Shown: positions 4,715 to 50,188, counted from the stretch's first letter. The stretch: DNA of 64,000 bases from Escherichia coli (GCF_036507355.1 NZ_AP027877.1), one strand, 5' to 3'. Translations and numbers: made by a program. The notes: generated by a model not told the origin, from the letters alone.

Positions 4715-4912
4715 AATTGCCATCCCTAATTGTATATACAAAAATGTATCTACAATTATTCTGCAATTATAGCGTTGATGTTGGAAATAGCATCACGTTT
4801 CGAATAATCAACCATGAAATTGACAATGAGTAAGTTGGACTTGATTCATCCAATAGAATTTCTCGCCTGACATGGCACACTAAACACCTCGCTGTCGGGT
4901 AATGACTCCAAC

Positions 4913-5415
4913 TTACTGATAGTGTTTTATGTTCAGATAATGCCCGATGGCCTTGTCATGCAGCTCCACCGATTTTGAGAACGACAGTGACTTCCGTCCC
5001 AGCCTTGCCAGATGTTGTCTCAGATTCAGATTATGTCGCTCAATGCGCTGAGTGTAACGCTTGCTGATAACGTGCAGCTTTCCCTTCAGGCGTGATTCAT
5101 ACAGCGGCCAGCCATCCGTCATCTATACTACGACCTCAAAGGCCGACAGCAGGCTCAGAAGACGCTCCAGTGTGGCCAGAGTGCGTTCACCGAAGACGTG
5201 GCCACAACCGTCCTCCGTATCCTGTCATACGCGTAAAACAGCCAGCGCTGACGTGATTTAGCACCGACGTAGCCCCAATGTTCGTCCATTTCAGCGCAGA
5301 CAATCACATCACTGCCCGGTTGTATGCGCGAGGTTACCGACTGCGGCCTGAGTTTTTTAAGTGACGTAAAACCGTGTTGAGGCCAACGCCCATAATGCGT
5401 GCACTGGCGCGACAT
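4913..5415 (-). pseudogene. insB: IS1 insB broken into two ORF fragments (4913-5122 and 5155-5415)
   Basis: Copy 2 has a continuous 167-aa InsB ORF; here the same protein is split across two frames. Confidence 0.6.
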
Positions 5416-5609
5416 CCGACGCCATTCATGGCCATATCAATGATTTTCTGGTGCGTACCGGGCTGAGAGGCGGTGTAAGTGAACTGCAGTTGCCATGTTT
5501 TACGGCAATGAGAGCAGAGATAGCGCTGATGTCCGGCAGTGCTTTTGCCGTTACGCACCACGCCTTCAGTAGCGGAGCAGGAAGGACATCTGATGGAAAT
5601 GGAAGCCAC
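5334..5609 (-). CDS. insA: IS1 InsA
   Basis: 91-aa [46 protein letters not shown]... Confidence 0.85.
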
Positions 5610-5923
5610 GCAAGCACCTTAAAATCACCATCATACACTAAATCAGTAAGTTGGCAGCATTACCAAATTTTAATTACACTTAAGGTGTATATTTTCTATG
5701 CAAGCCATCAATTAAAGAGGTGTAATGTGCTGATGACTATTTGTAATCGTTATACATTCTGACCTGGAGTCAGAAGGTATTTCTCTGTCTGTGTATTCGC
5801 AGGCAGTGTGGTTGATTACATGAAATTCAGTACATTTGTCCTTCTCGCCTGCCTTTCGTCATTACCGACGGTATTGAATTTCGTTTTCCCCATTGGGGTT
5901 CTCCGGACAAGGAGTTGTTTGTT

Positions 5924-36782: not shown

Positions 36783-37763
36783 ATGAACGCAATAATATCG
36801 CCTGATTATTACTATATTCTTACCGTTGCTGGTCAGTCTAATGCCATGGCGTATGGCGAAGGACTGCCATTACCGGACAGGGAAGATGCGCCTCATCCCA
36901 GAATTAAACAATTAGCGAGATTTGCGCATACGCATCCCGGAGGCCCGTCATGTCACTTTAACGACATTATTCCACTGACTCACTGCCCACACGATGTTCA
37001 GGATATGCAGGGTTATCACCATCCTCTGGCAACGAATCATCAAACACAGTACGGCACCGTTGGCCAGGCACTGCATATAGCACGGAAATTACTGCCCTTT
37101 ATTCCTGATAATGCAGGGGTTCTCATCGTTCCGTGTTGCCGTGGCGGATCGGCTTTTACCGCGGGCAGCGAAGGGACATATTCAGAACGGCACGGAGCCA
37201 GCCATGATGCTTGTCGTTGGGGAACGGATACTCCGCTATACCAGGATTTAGTCAGCAGAACGCGAGCCGCACTGGCAAAAAATCCGCATAACAAATTCCT
37301 CGGCGTATGCTGGATGCAAGGCGAATTTGACTTAATGACCAGTGACTACGCGTCACACCCTCAACACTTTAATCATATGGTTGAAGCCTTTCGTAGGGAT
37401 CTAAAACAATACCATTCTCAGCTTAATAATATTACTGACGCACCGTGGTTTTGCGGCGATACCACCTGGTACTGGAAAGAAAATTTCCCTCATGCGTATG
37501 AAGTTATTTATGGCAATTATCAAAATAATGTTTTAGCCAATATTATTTTCGTCGACTTCCAGCAACAAGGTGAAAGAGGACTGACGAACGCGCCTGATGA
37601 AGACCCGGACGATTTAAGCACGGGATATTACGGTTCAGCGTACCGGTCACCGGAGAACTGGACGACGGCACTGCGAAGCAGTCATTTCAGCACGGCAGCC
37701 CGTCGGGGGATTATTTCTGACAAGTTTGTAGAAGCAATTTTGCAGTTTTGGCGCGAAAGGTGA
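36783..37763 (+). CDS. nanS: 9-O-acetyl-N-acetylneuraminate esterase
   Basis: From MNAIISPDYYYILTVAGQSNAMAYG. Confidence 0.85.
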   Translation: MNAIISPDYYYILTVAGQSNAMAYGEGLPLPDREDAPHPRIKQLARFAHTHPGGPSCHFNDIIPLTHCPHDVQDMQGYHHPLATNHQTQYGTVGQALHIARKLLPFIPDNAGVLIVPCCRGGSAFTAGSEGTYSERHGASHDACRWGTDTPLYQDLVSRTRAALAKNPHNKFLGVCWMQGEFDLMTSDYASHPQHFNHMVEAFRRDLKQYHSQLNNITDAPWFCGDTTWYWKENFPHAYEVIYGNYQNNVLANIIFVDFQQQGERGLTNAPDEDPDDLSTGYYGSAYRSPENWTTALRSSHFSTAARRGIISDKFVEAILQFWRER

Positions 37764-37770
37764 GCGTTCA

Positions 37771-38025
37771 TTAATTTGATTTATTCGCATCCATCAGCGC
37801 TTTTAACTGCTCCGGCGTAAACGGTGGTTTGCGTCGGTGCAACATCGCATGGCAATTAGGGTACACAGGCAGCAAATCATTAACTGGATCCAGCTGGTAA
37901 TCCTCTTTAATGGCTGACAGCGGCACCAGGTGATGCACATGGATAAAGCCTTCAGCGATATCACCATAGATCTTCACCAGATCAACACCGCATATTCCGT
38001 ATGAACCATACGGAGATTTAACCAT
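37771..38025 (-). CDS. Short HNH-nuclease-motif protein (84 aa), possibly a truncated gene
   Basis: HVHHLVPLS...NCHAMLH motif; its start overlaps the divergent next gene on a CATG. Confidence 0.45.
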   Translation of the reverse strand: MVKSPYGSYGICGVDLVKIYGDIAEGFIHVHHLVPLSAIKEDYQLDPVNDLLPVYPNCHAMLHRRKPPFTPEQLKALMDANKSN

Positions 38026-38593
38026 GACCTACAAATACAACCCCTTCTGGCAGCAACGTATTCGTGAGACGGTGCGGCACGCACTGAATGTTCATCCCCG
38101 CCTGACGGCATTGCGGGTTGACCTGCGTCTCCCGGATGTACCGGCAGCAACGGACGCAGCTGTGATATCCCGCTTCATCAATGCCCTGAAAGCCCGAATC
38201 GACGCTTACCAGAAACGTAAGCATCGGGAAGGTAAACGCGTGCATCCCACAACCCTGCATTACGTCTGGGCCCGGGAGTTTGGGGAGTGCAAAGGTAAAA
38301 AACACTATCACCTGATGCTGCTGGTCAACCGGGATACCTGGTGTCGTGCCGGTGATTACCGCGCTCCGGAGTCTCTGGCCGGGATGATTAAACAGGCGTG
38401 GTGCAGTGCCCTGGGAGTGGATGTCGGGTGCCATGCCACGCTGGTGCATTTTCCGGCCTGGCCGGCGGTGTGGCTGGCGCGTAATGATGACACCGGCTTT
38501 CAGCAAGTGCTGGAACGTGCTGACTATCTGGCGAAGGAGTATACCAAAGCTCACTGCACCGGTGAGCGCAATTTTGGCTGTAGCCGGAGTTGA
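38024..38593 (+). CDS. YagK/YfjJ-family (inovirus Gp2-like) island protein
   Basis: 189-aa ORF MTYKYNPFWQQRIRETVRHALNVHPRLTALRVDLRLPD...; family assignment from memory only. Confidence 0.4.
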   Translation: MTYKYNPFWQQRIRETVRHALNVHPRLTALRVDLRLPDVPAATDAAVISRFINALKARIDAYQKRKHREGKRVHPTTLHYVWAREFGECKGKKHYHLMLLVNRDTWCRAGDYRAPESLAGMIKQAWCSALGVDVGCHATLVHFPAWPAVWLARNDDTGFQQVLERADYLAKEYTKAHCTGERNFGCSRS

Positions 38594-38852
38594 GCACGAC
38601 TGGCGCGCCAATATCCGGCAAACCAAAAGTATGGGTTGTTGTCTGGCGGCAACGATGTATCCACTCGCCCACTGACTGTTTTTTACGTCAGTGTTCCATT
38701 GTGTGACAACCACAGTGCTGTAACAGCAACCAGCCTGCTTTACCCAAACTCCAGTCCAGATTTTAACTGAACCGCCATTCACACCCTGACCACGCTGCCC
38801 GTACCGGGACGGCTGTTGCCTGCGTGTCGTCTGGCGGCTAAGGAATATGACT

Positions 38853-39254
38853 ATGTACGCAAAATCCTTTATCGCTCTTGATGGCAACGGACGTCTGACG
38901 GGCGCCCGTACTGCACAGGCCGCACCTTATGCTCACTACACCTGCCACTTGTGTGGCAGTGCACTCAGATACCATCCGCAATACGACACTGAACTTCCCT
39001 GGTTTGAACACACTGACGACAGGCTGACAGAGCACGGTCAACAGTGCCCTTATGTCAGGCCGGAGCGCAGAGAAATACAGTTGATTAAACGTCTGCAGCA
39101 ATTCGTACCGGATGCCTTACCCGTGGTGCGTAAAGCCAGCTGGCACTGCAGACAATGTCACCACGATTATTATGGGGAGCAGTACTGCACACACTGCCAG
39201 ACCGGAGGATTCAGTATTCCCCGGACAACTCAGGAGGAAATATGCGAATTCTGA
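38853..39254 (+). CDS. Cys-rich (double CxxC) hypothetical protein, paralogue A
   Basis: CHLCG...PWFEH...CRQCHHDYYGEQYCTHCQTG; RBS-like AAGGAA upstream of the ATG at 38853. Confidence 0.45.
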   Translation: MYAKSFIALDGNGRLTGARTAQAAPYAHYTCHLCGSALRYHPQYDTELPWFEHTDDRLTEHGQQCPYVRPERREIQLIKRLQQFVPDALPVVRKASWHCRQCHHDYYGEQYCTHCQTGGFSIPRTTQEEICEF

Positions 39255-39676
39255 ACTGTTATATGGCGAATGACAGCAAAGGCCATTTTGTTACGGCGAA
39301 AGAAGCTGCGAAGCACAACCGACAGGACGTTTTGTGCTGTGTGTCCTGTGGATGCCCGTTAACACTTCAGCGGGGCAATGACGGACAACCACCGTGGTTT
39401 GAACATGACCAGATGACTGTCGCTGAAAAAATCCTGCTGCGATGTACCTGGCTTGACCCGGCGGAGAAAGAGGCCCGTCGTTTGCATCTGCAGGGCATGA
39501 CGGTTCCGGATTATACGGTGAAGGTGAGAAAGTGGTTTTGTGTGATGTGTGACGAAGATTATGAGGGGGAAAAGTGCTGCCCACGCTGCGGTACCGGGGT
39601 ATACAGCAGGGCGTGGGGGCGGCAGGAGGTGCCGTCGGAAGATGCCAGGGCTGATAATCCGTTACAGAGGCTGTAA
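39242..39676 (+). CDS. Cys-rich (double CxxC) hypothetical protein, paralogue B
   Basis: CVSCGCP...PWFEH...CVMCDEDYEGEKCCPRCGTG; AGGAGG RBS inside the 3' end of paralogue A; 13-bp overlap. Confidence 0.45.
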   Translation: MRILNCYMANDSKGHFVTAKEAAKHNRQDVLCCVSCGCPLTLQRGNDGQPPWFEHDQMTVAEKILLRCTWLDPAEKEARRLHLQGMTVPDYTVKVRKWFCVMCDEDYEGEKCCPRCGTGVYSRAWGRQEVPSEDARADNPLQRL

Positions 39677-40030
39677 TGGTTGCCTCCGGAGCAGTTTGCG
39701 GTGATGCCTTTCCCGGGAATGGATTGCCAGTGCGGGGACTGTGGAGCTTAATTCCGGTGTTGGTGGCCTTTCCGTTGATTTTATGCCAACAGCCCCCTGT
39801 GACTGACAGGCTGCCTCGTCATTCCATTCGTATCTCCAGTAACAGGGGGTTGTATTGTATTTTATTGTGCCGGTTCAGGTGTGCGTTTCCCGGCGCGTCT
39901 GCACCGGCTTAACCAAATTCAACAGGGATAAAATAGTGGTAAGCGTACAGCCTGAACCGTCTGGTCAGAATCTGACGAATTAGACAAAGTGGTGTCCACC
40001 AAATAAGTAGTGGGAACCAAAGTGTCAGAT

Positions 40031-40411
40031 ATGCAGAAAAATGTGACTCCCGGCAGGCGAAAAGGCTGCCCTAATTATCCTCCCGAATTTAAACAGCTGC
40101 TCGTTGCTGCCTCCTGTGAACCCGGGATATCCATCTCAAAACTTGCTCTTGAAAATGGCATTAACGCCAATCTGTTGTTCAAATGGCGACAACAATGGCG
40201 CGAGGGAAAGCTGCTATTACCTTCTTCAGAGAGCCCCCAGCTACTTCCTGTGACTCTCGATGCAGCTGCCGAACAGCCAGAATCGCTCGCAGAGGACCCG
40301 GAAACCCTCAGTATCAGCTGTGAGGTAACGTTCCGGCACGGGACGCTCCGCTTCAATGGCAATGTCAGCGAAAAGCTCCTGACTCTGCTGATACAGGAAC
40401 TGAAGCGATGA
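40031..40411 (+). CDS. IS66 accessory protein (orfA)
   Basis: MQKNVTPGRRKGCPNYPPEFKQLLVAASCEPGISISKLALENGINANLLFKWRQQW (helix-turn-helix-like). Confidence 0.7.
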   Translation: MQKNVTPGRRKGCPNYPPEFKQLLVAASCEPGISISKLALENGINANLLFKWRQQWREGKLLLPSSESPQLLPVTLDAAAEQPESLAEDPETLSISCEVTFRHGTLRFNGNVSEKLLTLLIQELKR

Positions 40412-40755
40412 TCCCGTTACCTTCCGGGACCAAAATTTGGCTGGTTGCCGGTATCACCGATATGAGAAATGGCTTCAACGGCCTGGCTGCGAAAGTACAA
40501 ACGGCGCTGAAAGACGATCCCATGTCCGGCCATGTTTTCATTTTCCGGGGCCGCAGCGGCAGTCAGGTTAAACTGCTGTGGTCCACCGGTGACGGACTGT
40601 GCCTCCTGACCAAACGGCTGGAGCGTGGGCGCTTCGCCTGGCCGTCAGCCCGTGATGGCAAAGTGTTCCTTACGCAGGCGCAGCTGGCGATGCTGCTGGA
40701 AGGTATCGACTGGCGACAGCCCAAGCGGCTGCTGACCTCCCTGACCATGCTGTAA
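40408..40755 (+). CDS. IS66 TnpB-like protein (orfB)
   Basis: MIPLPSGTKIWLVAGITDMRNGFNGLAAKVQ...; ATGA overlap with orfA. Confidence 0.75.
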   Translation: MIPLPSGTKIWLVAGITDMRNGFNGLAAKVQTALKDDPMSGHVFIFRGRSGSQVKLLWSTGDGLCLLTKRLERGRFAWPSARDGKVFLTQAQLAMLLEGIDWRQPKRLLTSLTML

Positions 40756-40804
40756 ATCTCTTTATCCTGGTTGTCACAGAATAAGCCCGGTAAAATACGG
40801 GCTT

Positions 40805-42190
40805 ATGAACGACATCTCTTCTGACGACATCTTCCTGCTAAAACAGCGCCTGGCCGAACAGGAAGCGCTGATCCACGCCCTGCAGGAAAAGCTGAGCAAC
40901 CGGGAGCGCGAAATAGACCATCTGCAGGCGCAGCTGGATAAACTCCGCCGGATGAACTTCGGCAGTCGTTCCGAAAAAGTCTCCCGCCGTATCGCACAAA
41001 TGGAAGCCGATCTGAACCGGCTTCAGAAAGAGAGCGATACGCTGACTGGTAGGGTGTATGACCCGGCAGTACAGCGTCCGTTGCGTCAGACCCGCACCCG
41101 TAAGCCGTTCCCTGAATCACTACCCCGTGACGAAAAGCGACTGTTGCCTGCGGCGCCGTGCTGCCCGAACTGCGGCGGTTCACTGAGCTATCTGGGCGAG
41201 GATACCGCCGAACAGCTGGAGTTGATGCGTAGCGCCTTCCGGGTTATCCGGACGGTACGGGAAAAACATGCCTGTACTCAGTGCGATGCCATCGTGCAGG
41301 CACCTGCACCTTCGCGGCCCATCGAGCGGGGTATCGCCGGACCGGGGCTGCTGGCCCGCGTGCTGACCTCGAAGTATGCAGAGCACACCCCGCTGTATTG
41401 CCAGTCAGAAATATACGGCCGGCAAGGTGTGGAGCTGAGCCGTTCACTGCTGTCGGGCTGGGTGGATGCATGCTGCCGGCTGCTGTCTCCGCTGGAAGAG
41501 GCGCTTCATGGCTATGTCATGACTGACGGCAAACTCCATGCCGATGATACCCCGGTCCAGGTACTGCTGCCGGGTAATAAGAAGACGAAGACCGGGCGGT
41601 TGTGGGCGTATGTTCGTGATGACCGCAATGCCGGGTCAGCGTTGGCACCTGCAGTGTGGTTCGCTTACAGCCCGGACAGAAAAGGCATCCATCCGCAGAC
41701 TCATCTTGCTTGCTTCAGCGGTGTGCTGCAAGCGGATGCGTACGCCGGGTTCAACGAGCTGTATCGCAATGGTGGGATAACGGAAGCTGCCTGCTGGGCT
41801 CATGCCCGCCGAAAGATCCACGATGTGCACGTCCGCATCCCGTCAGCACTGACGGAAGAAGCCCTAGAGCAGATCGGTCAGTTGTACGCCATAGAGGCGG
41901 ATATAAGGGGAATGCCGGCAGAGCAGCGGCTTGCTGAACGTCAGCGAAAAACGAAACCGCTGTTGAAATCCCTGGAAAGCTGGTTGCGTGAAAAGATGAA
42001 GACCCTGTTCTTCGGCTCTGGCCATGGTGGTGAGCGGGGAGCGCTACTGTACAGCCTGATCGGGACGTGCAAACTGAATGACGTGGATCCAGAAAGCTAC
42101 CTTCGCCATGTGCCTGGCGTCATAGCAGACTGGCCGGTCAACCGGGTCAGCGAACTGCTTCCGTGGCGCATAGCACTGCCAGCTGAATAA
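40805..42190 (+). CDS. IS66-family transposase (orfC)
   Basis: 461-aa ORF with an N-terminal coiled coil and a CxxC...CxxC zinc-ribbon region. Confidence 0.75.
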   Translation: MNDISSDDIFLLKQRLAEQEALIHALQEKLSNREREIDHLQAQLDKLRRMNFGSRSEKVSRRIAQMEADLNRLQKESDTLTGRVYDPAVQRPLRQTRTRKPFPESLPRDEKRLLPAAPCCPNCGGSLSYLGEDTAEQLELMRSAFRVIRTVREKHACTQCDAIVQAPAPSRPIERGIAGPGLLARVLTSKYAEHTPLYCQSEIYGRQGVELSRSLLSGWVDACCRLLSPLEEALHGYVMTDGKLHADDTPVQVLLPGNKKTKTGRLWAYVRDDRNAGSALAPAVWFAYSPDRKGIHPQTHLACFSGVLQADAYAGFNELYRNGGITEAACWAHARRKIHDVHVRIPSALTEEALEQIGQLYAIEADIRGMPAEQRLAERQRKTKPLLKSLESWLREKMKTLFFGSGHGGERGALLYSLIGTCKLNDVDPESYLRHVPGVIADWPVNRVSELLPWRIALPAE

Positions 42191-42428
42191 CACATCCCCG
42201 TCAATACGGCCCTCGCTGTACGCTTACTTTTGTTCGGACTGCTTATGGCCTTTTTCCACTGGTGTAGCAGGAAAGTTAACCGGCTGCCACCATGAGATGA
42301 CGTGTAAACCGTGCAGGCATGTTTTCACGTGGTGACGCTTTCATTGGGGGTCTACGCCGGAACCCCAATATTGTTCACATACATGAATTTGAAAAACTAA
42401 GCGATACTGCTGTCCGTACCTTATAAAC

Positions 42429-43787
42429 TTATTTCAACGCTTCCGGCAGCGTCACAATCCACAGTTCACTGTCAGACTCCGGTTTCTCCAGTGGCTTCAC
42501 TCTGAGGGTCGTTTCAACCTGCTTGTCGTCAAGCGTCAGCTTTCCTTCCGCGTTCACCCGATAATCCTTGAATGTCTTGCCCTCGACCGGATGTTGCATC
42601 GCCACCTTCACGCCAAAGTCGTTATCGTTCGCCACCGCCAGCGTTTTGCTGTCGATCAGCGCCAACCCTTCAGCCTTCTCCTGCTGCCAGCCCAAGGAGC
42701 GCAGATCAACAACCTGCGTTTTCTGCGCAAGGGTAATGCCGCGCTGTGACAGGGTTTTCTCATCATCAAACTCCGGATACTCACCCGGCTTGTCGAAGCC
42801 TGACAGGTCGCTCGCCTTATTGAGATCGACCTCGTAAATCAGGTTACGCATTCTGTTGTTTTTATCTCTTCCCTGTTCGATCAGCAGGATGTGCTGGTTA
42901 TCGAGCGCCACGATGTCTCCGATTTTAGCGTCGCTGTTTTTGCTGTAGGCCGCGCTGTCGATAGGATAACCGTACATCGCGGTTTTTCCGCTTGCCGGAT
43001 CGAAGCTCACCAGACGCGTAAACAGCGCCTTTTTCTTGCTCTTAGCGTCGATATCCAGCGTACTTTGCACGGCGACAATAATACGCCCGTCCGGCATACG
43101 GGTGAGGCCTTCAAAGCCGCGGTTCGCCTGACGCCATTTGAGGATATTTGGCAAACCGCCCGCAATCGCTTTTTCCCCTTCCGCCGCCTGCGGACCGTGG
43201 ATTGCCAGGATTTTCCCTTTACTGTCGATGTTAATCAGGAACGGGCCATACTCATCGCACAGCCAGTAACCTCCTTTACCATCCGGAGTGATCCCTTCCG
43301 TATCCAGCCCGCGATTATCCCCCTTCAGTCTATGTAACGTGTCGCTGAAGGCCACTTCATTGGTGGAGCCAATCACGTCGCTTGCCAGCGGCAGACCGTT
43401 GATCGCGCCTTTATCGTCATGCAGAGGACGGGGATCGATGGCCTCCGCTTTGCCGTTTTGTACACGAATCGTCATCAGCAGCGGCGCGAAATCTGGCGTA
43501 ACGAAAATTTTAGTTTCGTTTTTCCCCTCTTTCGGTGAATCCGCGTTCGGACCGCGATCGGTAATGGTTGCGAATGTCAGGGCATCGCCCTGTTTACCGG
43601 TGAACAGCAGGCCAGAACCTATCCCAACCGGAAGGCCGTTCGGGAATGCACTGGCAAATGCGCCGGCGTAGTTCACGTGCGTGCCTTCTGGAAAACTGAC
43701 GACATAGCGCTCAGCCGTAGGTTGTGCCGCCAGGGCAGAGAAAGAGAGCGTACAACCGATTAGCACGGGAATAATTTTTCTTTTCAT
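42429..43787 (-). CDS. Secreted beta-propeller protein, phytase-like esterase family (tentative)
   Basis: Signal peptide MKRKIIPVLIGCTLSFSALAA; repeated blades with TEGI / FEGL / AEGL and DEYGP motifs. Confidence 0.45.
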   Translation of the reverse strand: MKRKIIPVLIGCTLSFSALAAQPTAERYVVSFPEGTHVNYAGAFASAFPNGLPVGIGSGLLFTGKQGDALTFATITDRGPNADSPKEGKNETKIFVTPDFAPLLMTIRVQNGKAEAIDPRPLHDDKGAINGLPLASDVIGSTNEVAFSDTLHRLKGDNRGLDTEGITPDGKGGYWLCDEYGPFLINIDSKGKILAIHGPQAAEGEKAIAGGLPNILKWRQANRGFEGLTRMPDGRIIVAVQSTLDIDAKSKKKALFTRLVSFDPASGKTAMYGYPIDSAAYSKNSDAKIGDIVALDNQHILLIEQGRDKNNRMRNLIYEVDLNKASDLSGFDKPGEYPEFDDEKTLSQRGITLAQKTQVVDLRSLGWQQEKAEGLALIDSKTLAVANDNDFGVKVAMQHPVEGKTFKDYRVNAEGKLTLDDKQVETTLRVKPLEKPESDSELWIVTLPEALK

Positions 43788-44071
43788 ATTGTTAGCATCC
43801 ATAAAGTGAAGATCACACTACACCATAAAGAAGAAACGAGTCAGGAAAATGACATCGAATGGCAACATGCGCGGGCCTGAGGCCAAAGAAATGTAAAACA
43901 CTGTTGTTATTTGTAACAACGGAAACATTTACGGAAATTATTTGTCTTTCTTCGTGATCAAAAATGCTGTGTCTTGTTGGATTGGAGTGATGAGGGCTGC
44001 GTTTAGGAAACGCCCTATATTGTACGGTTGCATTATCGCGGTAGGGGTAATGCACGTGTCAGTATGATGAG

Positions 44072-44200
44072 CTGACCACACTCACGTGGGTGGACTGGTA
44101 TAACAATCGACGATTGCTGGAAAGGCAGGGCCATATCCCACCGGCAGAAGCAGAAAAAGCTTATTATGCTTCCATCGGAAACGATGATCTGGCAGCCTGA
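44072..44200 (+). pseudogene. C-terminal remnant of a DDE (rve-type, IS3-like) transposase
   Basis: Translates to ...WVDWYNNRRLLERQGHIPPAEAEKAYYAS...*, a typical transposase C-terminus; no upstream body. Confidence 0.4.
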
Positions 44201-44298
44201 GTTCACAGATAAAACACTCTCCAGGAAACCCGGGGCGGTTCACTTAGCCGCGTGTCCATTATTGCTGGATAAGATCATAACGAGGTAATGACTCCAAC

Positions 44299-44802
44299 TT
44301 ATTGATAGTGTTTTATGTTCAGATAATGCCCGATGACTTTGTCATGCAGCTCCACCGATTTTGAGAACGACAGCGACTTCCGTCCCAGCCGTGCCAGGTG
44401 CTGCCTCAGATTCAGGTTATGCCGCTCAATTCGCTGCGTATATCGCTTGCTGATTACGTGCAGCTTTCCCTTCAGGCGGGATTCATACAGCGGCCAGCCA
44501 TCCGTCATCCATATCACCACGTCAAAGGGTGACAGCAGGCTCATAAGACGCCCCAGCGTCGCCATCGTGCGTTCACCGAATACGTGCGCAACAACCGTCT
44601 TCCGGAGCCTGTCATACGCGTAAAACAGCCAGCGCTGGCGCGATTTAGCCCCGACATAGCCCCACTGTTCGTCCATTTCCGCGCAGACGATGACGTCACT
44701 GCCCGGCTGTATGCGCGAGGTTACCGACTGCGGCCTGAGTTTTTTAAGTGACGTAAAATCGTGTTGAGGCCAACGCCCATAATGCGGGCTGTTGCCCGGC
44801 AT
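44299..44802 (-). CDS. insB: IS1 InsB (transposase frame)
   Basis: 167-aa ORF ...[42 protein letters not shown]... Confidence 0.85.
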
Positions 44803-44996
44803 CCAACGCCATTCATGGCCATATCAATGATTTTCTGGTGCGTACCGGGTTGAGAAGCGGTGTAAGTGAACTGCAGTTGCCATGTTTTACGACAGTGAGA
44901 GCAGAGATAGCGCTGATGTCCGGCGGTGCTTTTGCCGTTACGCACCACCCCGTCAGTAGCTGAACAGGAGGGACAGCTGATAGAAACAGAAGCCAC
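44721..44996 (-). CDS. insA: IS1 InsA
   Basis: 91-aa [46 protein letters not shown]... Confidence 0.9.
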
Positions 44997-45065
44997 TGGA
45001 GCACCTCAAAAACACCATCATACACTAAATCAGTAAGTTGGCAGCATCACCGGCCTCGCATTTAA

Positions 45066-45911
45066 TTATTCATTTAAAGATTCAAGAAATGTCCAGCCTT
45101 TATGAGTAACATAATACATTTGTCCTTTTGCCCCTCTTTCAATCACAAAATCAAAGGATAACAGTTCGTTAAGTGCGCCCTCCCAACGGGCTACCTCTCT
45201 AGCCGAACTTCCACCAAAGGATTGATTTCCCGCTTGAATATCCGTGCCACCTAAATGCCTTATCACATAAATTGTTCCGCTATCATCGACACATGCCAAT
45301 TTCAGCAAACTGAGTGCATCGGCGGACAAATTACTTTCTGGCAAAGATTGACTTGTATTCGCATCAGGAGAATTGTTAATGGTAGATATAAGAGAAGACA
45401 AATAAGGGCTACTAGAAATAATTATCGAAAGTTGCCTACGGACTTTGTCTTTGAAATCAGATAAGTCATTAAAAGACTCTATCAATCCCTTTTGCATGCA
45501 CTCAATTTTGAACAATTTAAGAGACTCATATTGTTCTCTATCAAGGCTTTCAGGGGCAACAGGCTTTGAGGAAAAGTAAATCATTGCCGGTTTTCCCGCA
45601 TTCAAATGACGGTGAATTTCTTCGACTGTTCCGCTGGCCTCGTTCCCAGTCGGTGAGCCTAGACGAGTCCAAAACACACCGATTAATAAATCACAATCTA
45701 CTAATAATCTTTGATTAATCAACTCCTGAGGCCTAACTCCTAATTCGGGTGATGTATGAGTTTCCCATCCAATTGGTGTCAACATTACTTTTGAACGAGC
45801 TGAATTTATATCATTCCACTCATGGATCATTTCACGAATGACTTGTCTCTCTTCAGCGACATCACCAGGAGAAGCAATCATTACAGGGATAACAGTTGCT
45901 GTGTAAGCCAT
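45066..45911 (-). CDS. Hypothetical protein with DUF4062-like N-terminal domain and an uncharacterised C-terminal domain
   Basis: N-terminus VMIASPGDVAEERQVIREMIHEW ... DCDLLIGVFWTRLGSP ... SGTVEEIHRHLNAGKPAMIYF resembles the DUF4062 pattern as I recall it; GGAGAG RBS 6 nt upstream; visibly AT-rich. Confidence 0.45.
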   Translation of the reverse strand: MAYTATVIPVMIASPGDVAEERQVIREMIHEWNDINSARSKVMLTPIGWETHTSPELGVRPQELINQRLLVDCDLLIGVFWTRLGSPTGNEASGTVEEIHRHLNAGKPAMIYFSSKPVAPESLDREQYESLKLFKIECMQKGLIESFNDLSDFKDKVRRQLSIIISSSPYLSSLISTINNSPDANTSQSLPESNLSADALSLLKLACVDDSGTIYVIRHLGGTDIQAGNQSFGGSSAREVARWEGALNELLSFDFVIERGAKGQMYYVTHKGWTFLESLNE

Positions 45912-45924
45912 AAACTCTCCATAT

Positions 45925-46485
45925 TCAATCGGTAATAGCTGCTACAGTCGCTCTTGAAACGCCATATTGACGCGCTAACGCACTGATACTCAAACCGCTA
46001 TTCTTTTTCTCTAAAATCTCTCTACGGGCTTCTGACGCGATTTTAGGAGGTCTGCCCAATTTCTTACCTTCGGCTTTTGCTCGTGATAGTCCCGCCTGAG
46101 TGCGCTCAATCAGCAGATCACGCTCCATCTCCGCAACCGCGGCGAGCATAGATAATAGCAACTTCCCAGCGGCAGAAGTGAGATCTGTGTTACCAAGCTG
46201 GTGGACAAGAACCTTGATATTACGGTCAGCCAGCGCCCTTACCGTTTGCAGGACGTCAATCGCATCACGCCCCAGACGATCAAGCTTCGCTACCACCAAC
46301 GTTTCACCATCGCGGATTTTATTGAGCATTTCAGAAAATGCTTTACGTTGCATTGCCGGAACCTTCCCGCTAACAACATCGGCAAACCAGTAATCAATTT
46401 GCCACCCAGCCTGCCCAAGCTCCAGCCGTTGGTTCTCAGTATCCTGCTGCGATGTCGAAACACGTCCGTAGCCAAAAGTTGCCAT
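45925..46485 (-). CDS. Small serine recombinase (resolvase/invertase family), about 186 aa
   Basis: From MATFGYGRVSTSQQDTENQ (catalytic Ser region) with a C-terminal helix-turn-helix (LSISALARQYGVSRATV); GGGGAG RBS upstream of the ATG at 46485. The track ORF carries a 23-codon extension. Confidence 0.8.
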   Translation of the reverse strand: MATFGYGRVSTSQQDTENQRLELGQAGWQIDYWFADVVSGKVPAMQRKAFSEMLNKIRDGETLVVAKLDRLGRDAIDVLQTVRALADRNIKVLVHQLGNTDLTSAAGKLLLSMLAAVAEMERDLLIERTQAGLSRAKAEGKKLGRPPKIASEARREILEKKNSGLSISALARQYGVSRATVAAITD

Positions 46486-46507
46486 TGTTATCTCCCCATC
46501 TGACCCC

Positions 46508-46605
46508 TGCCAGAAAACGAGGCCAACATTAGGATGGCCTGCCAGAAAAGCCAAGGCTATTTTTCCAACAGTGTGAAAGCGTGCGATTGGGAGGTGCCAG
46601 AAAAC
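46508..46605. promoter_or_regulatory. Three direct copies of TGCCAGAAAA(C/G) upstream of the recombinase gene, plus a short GGCCA...TGGCC palindrome; candidate recombinase binding or regulatory site
   Basis: Copies read at 46508, 46540 and 46595; the GGCCAACATTAGGATGGCC palindrome lies between the first two. Confidence 0.35.
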
Positions 46606-47460
46606 GGTCGATTGATGACACCATCAAACACTAACAGTGTGCCCCGGCAACGCGCGCCTGCAACGGTTGTCTCGGATGAGCAAAATCTTAGGGTTTTCTC
46701 AGCGACCCCTGACGCGCGGGCACGCACATGCTCACGGGGGCGCGGGCGAGCTATACAGTTGAGGGAGGGGCAACCATAAGCGTGCAATTTTTCAAGCCGG
46801 GGATTCAGCTATAGGCTAACGGTAGAATGCGGCTTGTAGAGGGTTGTGCGCACATACCCAGTACAATCGCATTACTCCACGCGCACAAACCCCGGAGAGC
46901 CGCTTGCGGTGGGGGTTTAAGAGGTACAATTTTTGGTTCGGGTCATAAAGGACTTTTGAGAGCTGACTTAGCTTATTTAAACTGCATTCGTCTTGGCTAT
47001 GGAGACACGAGGCAGCTCAAGTTTTGTTCAAAACTTTGCAATATTTTGGTTCGATCTCATGTTCTCGTGCTAAAGAAATCAGCACTCGATCAAATTTTCA
47101 TTTTTTTTCTGAAACATTGACATACAGCCTAAGCCTTAAGGCACGTAGGGTTGGTCGAAATTTCCCTTTGACAACCTCAATTTAACCTCAAAATCAACCC
47201 TTGTACTGCAAAGAATCCTAACTAGAATGCTGAACATGTAGGGGGGAATCTTATTAACACACCCTATATGTTGTGCTCATGTATAAATGATGGGCATAAA
47301 AAAACCGGAGTCACCTGCGTGAATCCGGTCTATGAAGCATGACCGCCATGAGTCTGCAAACTCATAACGATTGTTAGCCTCACTATCGTTTCTAACGGCT
47401 CGATTGTGCCCGGCTTGGTTGGTTATGTAAACAGTAAGATAAAATCAAAAGGAACGATCC

Positions 47461-48375
47461 ATGCTTATTCAGAAAAAGCGTATTCGAAATATTGATAATT
47501 ACATACCTAACTTTGATGGCCGTGATATCTACATTGCACATTCTTTGCCAGATGCGGGGAAAACGGACTCTATTGGTTTCTCAAGTCAAAGAGCTTTAGG
47601 TGAAGAAGTCCTCCCCAAGATTTTAGGGCCAATAACCAGATTCAATGCTAATGGCAAATCAGTACCTGACAAAACAGCACCTAAAGAAACTGCATACAGA
47701 CAAATTTCATGGACTAGAAAGCAATGGATCGGAGGGGGCGCAACTCAAGAAGTTACTGACACTCGTGAAATTGAGTATAAGCGCTACAAGAGAATCCTCA
47801 CCCCTCCACCAAGCATAGAGTTAAAGATTGTAGAGAATCTTCAAGGGGAGAAGTTGATCATCTCTCCAAAGCTAAGTTTGACAGCTAACAACAAAGAGTT
47901 AGTGGCTCACTGCATTAATCTTTTTTTAGAGCTTTTTGGGTTGTGCGAAACTGTTGACGACCAACTTAATACCATCGTTAAAAGTAAATCTATAAAACTA
48001 AACTGGAGCCTCCTGCCTCAGGGTCAACAGCCTTGGAGTACTATCGGTTCAAAAATCCTTTCAGCTATTAAGATCAGGGGAAAGGGCAATACCGCTGTTG
48101 TTGAAGGCAGACTTGAACTTATCAATAGTAAAAAACCAGATTTCGTAGCGGTTGGGCAAGCTGGGTTCCAAGGCTACGTGATATTTGGGTTCACAGGCCA
48201 AAACATTTACGTGCTAGAAAGCTCACAATGTAATAACGCAACTTATATACTTAACAATAATTGGCAGCAGTTATCCCAGCTAACTAAAGCCGAAATACTA
48301 GACGGAAACTTGCACCATGCCCGTGTCATCCACCGTGTAAACTGGGCAGCAGAAATACTTAAATACTTACCATAA
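47461..48375 (+). CDS. Hypothetical protein (304 aa), no domain recognised
   Basis: ATG preceded by an AAGGAA RBS at about 8-nt spacing; visibly AT-rich; no homologue recognised by eye. Confidence 0.5.
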   Translation: MLIQKKRIRNIDNYIPNFDGRDIYIAHSLPDAGKTDSIGFSSQRALGEEVLPKILGPITRFNANGKSVPDKTAPKETAYRQISWTRKQWIGGGATQEVTDTREIEYKRYKRILTPPPSIELKIVENLQGEKLIISPKLSLTANNKELVAHCINLFLELFGLCETVDDQLNTIVKSKSIKLNWSLLPQGQQPWSTIGSKILSAIKIRGKGNTAVVEGRLELINSKKPDFVAVGQAGFQGYVIFGFTGQNIYVLESSQCNNATYILNNNWQQLSQLTKAEILDGNLHHARVIHRVNWAAEILKYLP

Positions 48376-48888
48376 AGCGCCGGACGCGCGGGAATGAACC
48401 CCCGCGCACTTTCAAACATACCGCAATAGAATCCATAAAGCCCCGTTGGTGGTAAGACAACAAGCGGAGCCTCTGGCGACTACATCACAGTTATGTCAGT
48501 TAGTGAGGCTTATCAGGATGACCATGTACCCAAGGGGAGCGAGGCCGAACCGCTGGCAGAGCTTGCATATGGTCTGCAAGTACCGTGACCACCATAAACC
48601 TGTTTATCCCCTGCGGCGTCTCGCGACAGCGGCAGAACGGGGGCATCGGGCTAAAATGCGCTTCACTAAAAGTTTTTGGGATTGTTTAGAGACAGTGGCT
48701 ACGTCATAGCTTTCAAGTTGAGTCAGTACGTGTTTGACGCTTGGAACTACACGCCGCTATGAGTTAACATCCCAATTACCACTATCAACCACAGCGGCTT
48801 TTTCAAGGGACATAACAGAGCATTTCTTACAGGCAAAAGAGACAGATTTTATTGTCTAACTACCTGTATTGTAAGGAATTTAGTGACT

Positions 48889-48973
48889 TGGTGCCGAAGG
48901 CCGGACTCGAACCGGCACGTATTTCTACGGTTGATTTTGAATCAACTGCGTCTACCGATTTCGCCACTTCGGC
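48889..48973 (-). tRNA. leuX: tRNA-Leu (leuX type, CAA anticodon)
   Basis: Reverse complement reads GCCGAAGTGGCGAAATCGGTAGACGCAGTTGATTCAAAATCAACCGTAGAAATACGTGCCGGTTCGAGTCCGGCCTTCGGCACCA, a cloverleaf with a long variable arm and CCA end. Confidence 0.9.
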
Positions 48974-49168
48974 ACTGAAGAGGTATGCGGAAAACGTTGT
49001 GGATTATACCTGTCGCACGCCACCATGCAAGCGCCAGCTTGCTCGCACCTCGCTAAGTGCTGAAATTTTCAGCATTGCATACAGCGATGTGTAACCTTTG
49101 TCACACTCCAGGCACCCCGCCCTGCCATGCTCTACACTTCCCAGACAACACCAGAGAAGGACCAAAAA

Positions 49169-50188
49169 ATGTCGATGATAAAAAGCTATGCCGCAAAAGA
49201 AGCAGGCGGCGAACTGGAAGTTTATGAGTACGATCCCGGTGAACTGAAGCCACAAGATGTTGAAGTGCAGGTGGATTACTGCGGGATCTGCCATTCCGAT
49301 CTGTCGATGATCGATAACGAATGGGGATTTTCACAATATCCGCTGGTTGCCGGGCATGAGGTGATTGGTCGCGTGGTGGCGCTCGGGAGCGCCGCGCAGG
49401 ATAAAGGTTTGCAGGTCGGTCAGCGTGTCGGGATTGGCTGGACGGCGCGTAGCTGCGGGCATTGCGATGCCTGTATTAGCGGTAATCAGATCAACTGTGA
49501 GCAAGGTGCGGTGCCGACGATTATGAATCGCGGTGGCTTTGCCGAGAAGTTGCGTGCGGACTGGCAATGGGTGATTCCACTGCCAGAAAATATTGATATC
49601 GAGTCCGCCGGGCCGCTGTTGTGCGGTGGTATCACGGTCTTCAAACCACTGTTAATGCACCATATCACTGCCACCAGCCGCGTTGGGGTAATTGGTATTG
49701 GCGGGCTGGGGCATATCGCTATAAAACTTCTGCACGCAATGGGATGCGAGGTGACAGCCTTTAGTTCGAATCCGGCGAAAGAGCAGGAAGTACTGGCGAT
49801 GGGTGCCGATAAAGTGGTGAATAGCCGCGATCCGCAGGCACTGAAAGCACTGGCGGGGCAGTTTGATCTCATTATCAACACCGTCAACGTCAGCCTCGAC
49901 TGGCAGCCTTATTTTGAAGCGCTGACGTACGGCGGTAATTTCCATACGGTCGGTGCGGTTCTCACGCCGCTGTCTGTTCCGGCCTTTACGTTAATTGCGG
50001 GCGACCGCAGCGTCTCTGGTTCTGCTACCGGCACGCCTTATGAGTTGCGTAAGCTGATGCGCTTTGCCGCCCGCAGCAAGGTTGCGCCGACTACCGAATT
50101 GTTCCCGATGTCGAAAATTAACGACGCCATTCAGCATGTACGCGATGGTAAAGCGCGCTACCGAGTGGTCCTGAAAGCCGACTTCTGA
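49169..50188 (+). CDS. ahr: NADPH-dependent aldehyde reductase (zinc alcohol dehydrogenase family)
   Basis: From [26 protein letters not shown]...GHEVIG...GIGGLGH. Confidence 0.9.

Follow-up and report, generated by a model that had tools for sequence, protein, structure and literature searches.

The window, by which we mean the whole 64-kb stretch of Escherichia coli DNA analysed here, contains a degraded island at the tRNA-Leu(CAA) gene leuX. From the left, the order is uxuB-gntP-fim-nanCMS, an HNH fragment, Gp2, two zinc-ribbon genes and a deleted copy of the insertion sequence ISEc8; to the right of ISEc8 lie a DUF6404 remnant, a phytase-like gene, an IS3-family remnant, IS1, three ORFs and leuX, followed by ahr, yjgR and lptFG. 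An Rfam scan of 37000-49500 returned the leuX tRNA only. One of the three ORFs between IS1 and leuX encodes a serine recombinase. The features that matter for what follows are these:

39931..39938, no strand: left flanking 8-mer, AAATAGTG, in leuX-island backbone
39939..42227, plus strand: ISEc8 copy (IS66 family), 2289 bp
39939..39960, plus strand: left inverted repeat of ISEc8 (IRL), GTAAGCGTACAGC perfect, 18/22 against the right repeat
40031..40411 (RefSeq annotation), plus strand: tnpA (orfA), 126 aa, WP_001171523.1, Pfam HTH_Tnp_1 (1.9e-11)
40408..40755, plus strand: tnpB (orfB), 115 aa, WP_000612591.1, Pfam TnpB_IS66 (1.2e-38)
40805..42190, plus strand: tnpC (orfC), open 461-aa frame, WP_000998019.1, protein 51 aa short
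42004..42008, plus strand: joint of a 153-bp deletion, CCTGT, a 5-bp microhomology found at both endpoints in full-length ISEc8
42206..42227, plus strand: right inverted repeat of ISEc8 (IRR), ending ...GCTGTACGCTTAC
42228..42235, no strand: right flanking 8-mer, TTTTGTTC, inside DUF6404 coding sequence
42230..42307, plus strand: 3' remnant of a DUF6404 gene, final ~26 codons, interrupted by a stop in this copy
42429..43802, minus strand: phytase-like gene (esterase-like activity of phytase), which travels with the IS
44069..44242, plus strand: IS3-family right-end remnant, 95% identical to the right end of IS1203
44282-45052: IS1
48889-48973, minus strand: leuX

The element opens with GTAAGCGTACAGC and closes with GCTGTACGCTTAC, the closing 13-mer being the exact reverse complement of the opening one. 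The terminal inverted repeats are thus perfect over 13/13 positions, match at 18/22 when extended, and begin with GTAAGCG, as is characteristic of the IS66 family. Fourteen related loci, and copies inserted elsewhere, have the same ends. Taken alone, the 13-mer is statistically ordinary (at least two matches in 31/100 shuffles with two mismatches allowed); here it forms an exact inverted pair that encloses three IS66 genes, tnpA-tnpB-tnpC, consecutive and on the same strand. The orfC product carries the Pfam domains LZ_Tnp_IS66, zf-IS66, DDE_Tnp_IS66 (3.4e-77) and the IS66 C-terminal element. The original prediction of an IS66-family element with 13-bp terminal inverted repeats is borne out by the Pfam domains and the exact 13-bp pair. 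Its extent had been given as 39938-42227; the right end is correct, and position 39938 proved to be the last flanking base, which places the true start at 39939.

The 2289 bp match thousands of places at at least 99% identity in complete E. coli genomes. We aligned them with a full-length copy of 2442 bp that RefSeq annotates as 'IS66-like element ISEc8 family' (locus L012, 6006-8447). Nucleotide identity was 99.5% over IS positions 1-2070 and 98.7% over positions 2066-2289, and the cluster to which TnpC belongs bears the name 'IS66-like element ISEc8 family transposase'. ISEc22/ISEc23-type TnpC proteins in the fetched loci were only ~64-67% identical. WP_000612591.1 is also annotated for the tnpB of an ISEc8 copy with full-length tnpC in strain Xuzhou21 (L002). 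The left end of that copy is cut by IS1203. On sequence grounds the element is ISEc8, a catalogued member of the IS66 family, present as an internally deleted copy. It has the ends, the tnpA-tnpB-tnpC order and the TnpB accession of the ISEc8 known from E. coli O157:H7 and many plasmids, and differs from it by a 153-bp deletion in tnpC, four missense changes and the lack of an 8-bp target duplication. IS679 and IS66 are the prototype three-ORF elements of the family and are reported to make 8-bp duplications; ISEc8 resembles them in its three-ORF layout, in ends of the GTAAGCG type and in the 8-bp duplications that flank its sister copies, although it is a different element.

All three reading frames had been described as complete. 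This holds for orfA and orfB, which are intact; orfC is open but lacks 51 of the 512 residues of full-length TnpC. A single in-frame deletion of 153 bp relative to full-length ISEc8 removes residues 402-452 (SRHSELAKAFAYALNQWPALTYYANDGWVEIDNNIAENALRAVSLGRKNFL). RefSeq copies annotated 'IS66-like element ISEc8 family transposase' span 681 bp, as against 528 bp here, and the window orfC covers only positions 1-222 of the 284 in the Pfam DDE_Tnp_IS66 profile. The full-length TnpC expected of ISEc8 was thus not found in the window copy. The missense changes against ISEc8 are S167P, R199C, D457G and L488P.

To judge the deletion, we aligned ISEc8 TnpC with 108 diverse full-length IS66-family TnpC proteins (109 sequences in all), the 108 being cluster representatives with a listed identity to ISEc8 of ~35-54%. 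Four acidic residues are near-invariant in this alignment: D247, D311, E364 and E438. The deleted stretch is the best-conserved block of TnpC (idNN..E...r....GRkN) and holds E438 (98% conserved) and N450 (98%) as well as A410 and Y413; R199, changed to cysteine in the window copy, is conserved in 100% of the 109 sequences. Because this block, with E438 and N450, is lost and R199C falls at an invariant position, the transposase of the window copy is very probably dead. The PDB copy that we searched contained no solved IS66 TnpC structure on which to place the catalytic residues, and a search of the literature on the mechanism or catalytic residues of ISEc8/IS66 returned nothing usable.

IS66-family elements are expected to be flanked by 8-bp duplications, and the original prediction reported that the two flanks of this copy do not match. 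The flanking 8-mers are exactly as it gave them, AAATAGTG (39931-39938) and TTTTGTTC (42228-42235), and agree at 2/8 positions. The 30-bp flanks have no k-mer of 5 bp or longer in common, and shifting each end by up to 6 bp does not reveal one. Sister copies behave differently. In strain CFSAN027343 (L003) and in CP028112 (L024), a copy lies in the core gene yehR and has GAACGGCA on both sides, reading ...GAACGGCA/GTAAGCG...CGCTTAC/GAACGGCA... (slashes mark the IS ends), and the full-length copy in L012 (2442 bp) is bordered by a perfect 8-bp duplication, GACTGTTG. The terminal bases of all these copies are identical to those of the window copy. Since independent sister insertions share its ends and have perfect 8-bp duplications, the window boundaries are right, and the absence of a duplication belongs to the locus, not to the element. 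That absence is real.

The yehR copies are the same deleted variant, with the identical 461-aa protein WP_000998019.1, and a yehR copy and a leuX-island copy coexist in one genome (L023/L024). A full-length-type tnpC, containing the 153-bp segment, is present in 2,255/5,426 complete genomes, and strain E2865 combines the deleted locus with 12 places that match the segment. The crippled copy has moved at least once, into yehR, presumably using TnpC supplied by a full-length ISEc8. Such mobilisation in trans would place it beside other non-autonomous IS derivatives, which it resembles in keeping both inverted repeats, in having a crippled transposase and in the identical yehR copy with a fresh 8-bp duplication; it differs from them in having kept tnpA and tnpB intact and a long open frame for TnpC.

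Each side of the window copy leads to a different locus. The match to the empty left site stops precisely at 39938/39939, and that to intact DUF6404 genes precisely at 42227/42228. On the left, the flank is leuX-island backbone. In IS-free genomes AAATAGTG is followed directly by (T/C)AAATAACCGAAG..., and we write this site as AAATAGTG/TAAATAACC. Four loci without the IS (L004, L005, L006 and L015) read ...GGATAAAATAGTG(T/C)AAATAACCGAAG... or, over a longer stretch, ...CAACAGGGATAAAATAGTG(T/C)AAATAACCGAAGTATTAC.... Beyond the site the IS-free backbone continues with an ilvN-like pseudogene, a DeoR regulator, rbsK, fucP and an aldose epimerase gene. The uninterrupted left site occurs in 825 genomes, and the backbone downstream of it is absent from the whole 64-kb window.

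On the right, homology to intact plasmid DUF6404 genes starts at the first base past the IS and extends over 118 bp (42228-42345, 85-92% nucleotide identity). The sampled records with an intact DUF6404 gene are all plasmids, of 69-214 kb, and read ...AGTGGTTTTTTGTTCGGACTG. The 5' part of the gene is absent from the whole 64-kb window. The adjacent phytase-like gene has ~85% nucleotide identity to Enterobacter chromosomal genes, limited to 42425-43942. Homologues in Enterobacter and other Enterobacterales are ~75-86% identical, with homology ending at the gene ends, and none was found to have DUF6404 as a neighbour. We therefore rejected the native Enterobacter context as a guide to the donor. 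An Enterobacter-like phytase gene without a DUF6404 neighbour implies that the DNA to the right of the IS was already mosaic. The suggestion that the element had taken part in a rearrangement within a mosaic island thus fits both flanks: the left one continues into different DNA in IS-free genomes, and the right one is a plasmid-type DUF6404 3' fragment.

Both junctions are widely inherited. They were identical in 14/14 fetched loci of the leuX-island site, and the flanks are 99-100% conserved among thousands of genomes. The deleted tnpC together with the right junction was found in 2,161/5,426 complete genomes (~40% of E. coli). Of the full-coverage matches, 21/21 sampled were in a single piece, i.e. 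the deleted form; the sampled matches to full-length ISEc8 all stop at the IS end and so lie elsewhere. The left junction was present in 20/23 matches sampled from the 1,924 records covered to 80% or more, from which we estimate roughly 1,700 genomes with it. The rearrangement and the 153-bp deletion are both older than the spread of the module. Decay at the site has continued, with an IS1414 insertion in L008 and a further deletion and a frameshift in L013.

The joint belongs to a conserved block, 37993-44242, common to Nissle 1917 (L001), L013 and many others, with variable DNA on either side. Its right boundary is the IS3-family remnant, next to which the DNA differs between L008, L013 and the window. 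The module (ISEc8 deletion copy, DUF6404 remnant, phytase-like gene, IS3 remnant) is followed in L008 by ATTCGTAACTGGTAGAGTTACTACAACAAGCATGGGAGG, which in the uninterrupted backbone of the L015 type lies ~340 bp downstream of the AAATAGTG site. As the L008 backbone resumes ~340 bp past the site, the module is extra DNA replacing ~340 bp, not backbone brought close by a deletion. Its two boundaries are the ends of different IS elements.

Three processes typically leave an IS whose flanks come from two loci: inter-IS recombination, cointegrate formation and intramolecular transposition with loss of the neighbouring DNA. Probably, though we say so with considerable reserve, ISEc8 mediated the fusion of a DUF6404-bearing replicon to the chromosome, by inter-IS recombination or through a cointegrate, and the product was then trimmed. 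The first step would have been either RecA recombination between a plasmid ISEc8 within DUF6404 and a chromosomal ISEc8 at AAATAGTG, or a cointegrate-forming transposition; both routes would give IS copies with one flank from each partner. The IRL would still sit on the leuX-backbone site, AAATAGTG/TAAATAACC, and the IRR on plasmid-type DNA, that is, the DUF6404 3' end and then the phytase-like gene. In a second step, deletions, one of them ending at the IS3-family element, would have eliminated the other IS copy, along with the 5' part of DUF6404 and the remainder of the DNA that had come in. This would have been a single ancient event whose product is now inherited with leuX-type islands. 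In this history the exact ends, the missing duplication, the separate origins of the flanks, the deletion inside tnpC and the broad inheritance are shown, whereas the sequence of events, the cointegrate or crossover between IS copies and the inactivity of TnpC are deduced. We favour fusion because plasmid-type DNA makes up the right flank, the module adds DNA to the site and E. coli plasmids often carry ISEc8 (the 153-bp segment has matches at 2,736 plasmid places). A fusion of this kind would attach the foreign DNA and create the mismatched flanks in one step.

We searched the 5,426 complete genomes with synthetic queries for the two reciprocal junctions, IRR followed by AAATAGTG and TAAATAACC... 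and the DUF6404 5' part followed by TTTTGTTC and IRL, and obtained no full-length match to either; as exact 23-24-mers they were not found in metagenome contigs. Three matches with TTGTTC next to IRL (H223-H225) were set aside as chance matches, the two that were fetched being unrelated loci near lpxM and ykgJ. As no intermediate was found, the argument for cointegration is one of parsimony. An inversion within the window was rejected, since neither the DUF6404 5' part, nor the downstream backbone, nor a second ISEc8 copy is present in the 64 kb.

The main alternative, which we regard as possible but rather unlikely, is an adjacent deletion: ISEc8 would have inserted at AAATAGTG with a normal duplication, and its right end would then have attacked DUF6404 on the same molecule, with loss of the right duplication and the intervening DNA. 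This, too, would keep the left junction as it was, create a right junction that begins exactly at the IS end and leave no reciprocal product, and deletions ending at IS ends are frequent in the locus, as the IS3-family remnant in L008, L013 and the window illustrates. However, only ~340 bp separate the AAATAGTG site from the point where the L008 backbone resumes, so that a prior, separate and unobserved insertion of DUF6404-phytase DNA would be needed, and intact E. coli DUF6404 genes were seen only on plasmids. Insertion of plasmid DNA into the 340-bp stretch followed by such a deletion would give the same final structure.

It is very improbable that IRL, the IS3-family right end and all the DNA between them transposed together, with the duplication to be expected at the outer ends. 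The module is indeed bounded by IS ends and replaces a short backbone stretch in L008, but the two ends come from IS families with different transposases. The IS3-family end is followed by ATTCGTAA in L008 and by CTTAGCCG in the window, neither of which repeats AAATAGTG; ~340 bp of backbone are missing where 8 bp should be duplicated; and among 10 de-duplicated contexts we did not see the module at another site with a duplication. That the boundaries are slightly wrong and a duplication lies at the true ends, as had been proposed, is refuted: only the a priori expectation for IS66-family elements speaks for it, whereas two independent insertions that end at identical bases have perfect 8-bp repeats, the shifted flanks share no k-mer of at least 5 bp, and homology breaks exactly at both ends. 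A normal duplication later eroded by point mutations can practically be discounted, for while the copy shows its age and decay in an internal deletion and four missense changes, its 8-mers match at only two positions, its flanks are almost unchanged among thousands of genomes and are each colinear with a different, unrelated locus, and no empty site with the two flanks contiguous was found.

Fusion through ISEc8 remains our preferred reading, and the case as a whole is one of a known IS at an ancient rearrangement joint. Non-matching flanks that arise by inter-IS recombination, cointegrate formation or adjacent deletion are textbook observations, best documented for IS1, IS26 and IS6110. The window copy is like these in being a single IS with flanks from two loci and with its intervening or reciprocal products lost, and is unusual only in being fixed in ~40% of complete E. 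coli genomes. We suggest more tentatively, as a scenario that is quite possible but short of probable, that in a single capture ISEc8 welded plasmid-type DNA, comprising the DUF6404 fragment and the Enterobacter-like phytase gene, onto an island of the leuX type, that the product reached ~40% of E. coli, and that full-length ISEc8 can still move the IS at the joint in trans, as the copy in yehR suggests.

The finding has little import beyond annotation and points to neither a new kind of element nor a new mechanism. The appropriate label is an internally deleted ISEc8 with a defective tnpC, which has no duplication because it sits on a rearrangement joint. The copy is a useful and stable marker for the module Gp2-two zinc-ribbon genes-ISEc8 deletion copy-'DUF6404-phytase-like-IS3 remnant, which ~40% of complete E. 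coli genomes have in common, and the case illustrates how plasmid-type and Enterobacter-like DNA enters leuX-type islands.

The tnpC gene of the ISEc8 copy carries a 153-bp in-frame deletion with CCTGT microhomologies at its two endpoints. It also encodes an R199C substitution at a residue that is invariant across 109 IS66-family homologues. At the leuX-island locus, all sampled genomes had the deleted tnpC allele and none had full-length ISEc8.

Features of the window and of two comparison loci
40805–42190, tnpC, with the deletion joint at 42004–42008
44069–44242, right-end remnant of an IS3-family element, 95% identical to IS1203
44282–45052, IS1 copy, 39 bp past the IS3-family remnant
45066–48375, three ORFs between IS1 and leuX
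4898–5668, second IS1 copy
2240–4528 of L003 and 3135–5423 of L024, deleted ISEc8 in yehR

To the left of the element, comparison with the related island L013 showed that the window island lacks the part carrying Ag43, CbtA and a GTPase (~9 kb), and that nanS and a short HNH-endonuclease ORF adjoin the Gp2 gene directly (37771–38025 / 37993). This arrangement marks a putative second deletion joint ~2 kb left of the ISEc8 copy.

To the right, the phytase-like gene (42425–43942) is ~85% identical at the nucleotide level to chromosomal genes of Enterobacter spp., and homology stops at both borders of the gene, which seems to have been acquired on its own from outside Escherichia. Beyond the IS3-family end, the window and the related islands L008 and L013 each continue into different DNA. 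The adjacent IS1 shares only ~90% identity with the IS1 of Nissle 1917, and the second IS1 copy is ~99% identical to that same Nissle copy. The first ORF of the IS1–leuX interval (281 aa) matches PDC-S60, a candidate defence model in PADLOC, over the model's N-terminal part (1.7e-26) and, weakly, DUF4062; the second is a serine recombinase of 209 aa. Pfam and PADLOC gave no match for the third (304 aa), and no tyrosine integrase ORF of at least 90 aa was found adjoining the leuX tRNA.

The segment comprising the right inverted repeat, DUF6404 remnant and phytase-like gene is also present on a 98-kb plasmid (NZ_CP100960.1; locus L010, from 7818 of that locus onward), and the module can therefore reside on plasmids too. 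There, ISEc8 is truncated on its left side, and the site equivalent to window position 43994/43995 holds a complete IS1203 insertion. One contig of 2971 bp (CAJKJS010000287.1), assigned by binning to 'uncultured Ruminococcaceae', shares 99.5% identity with the E. coli ISEc8/phytase junction and almost certainly represents mis-binned E. coli DNA.

A deleted ISEc8 identical to the window copy interrupts the core gene yehR in L003 and L024, and one genome with this insertion also has the leuX-island copy. The yehR insertion is flanked by a perfect 8-bp duplication, GAACGGCA. Taken together, these features suggest that the defective ISEc8 was mobilised in trans.
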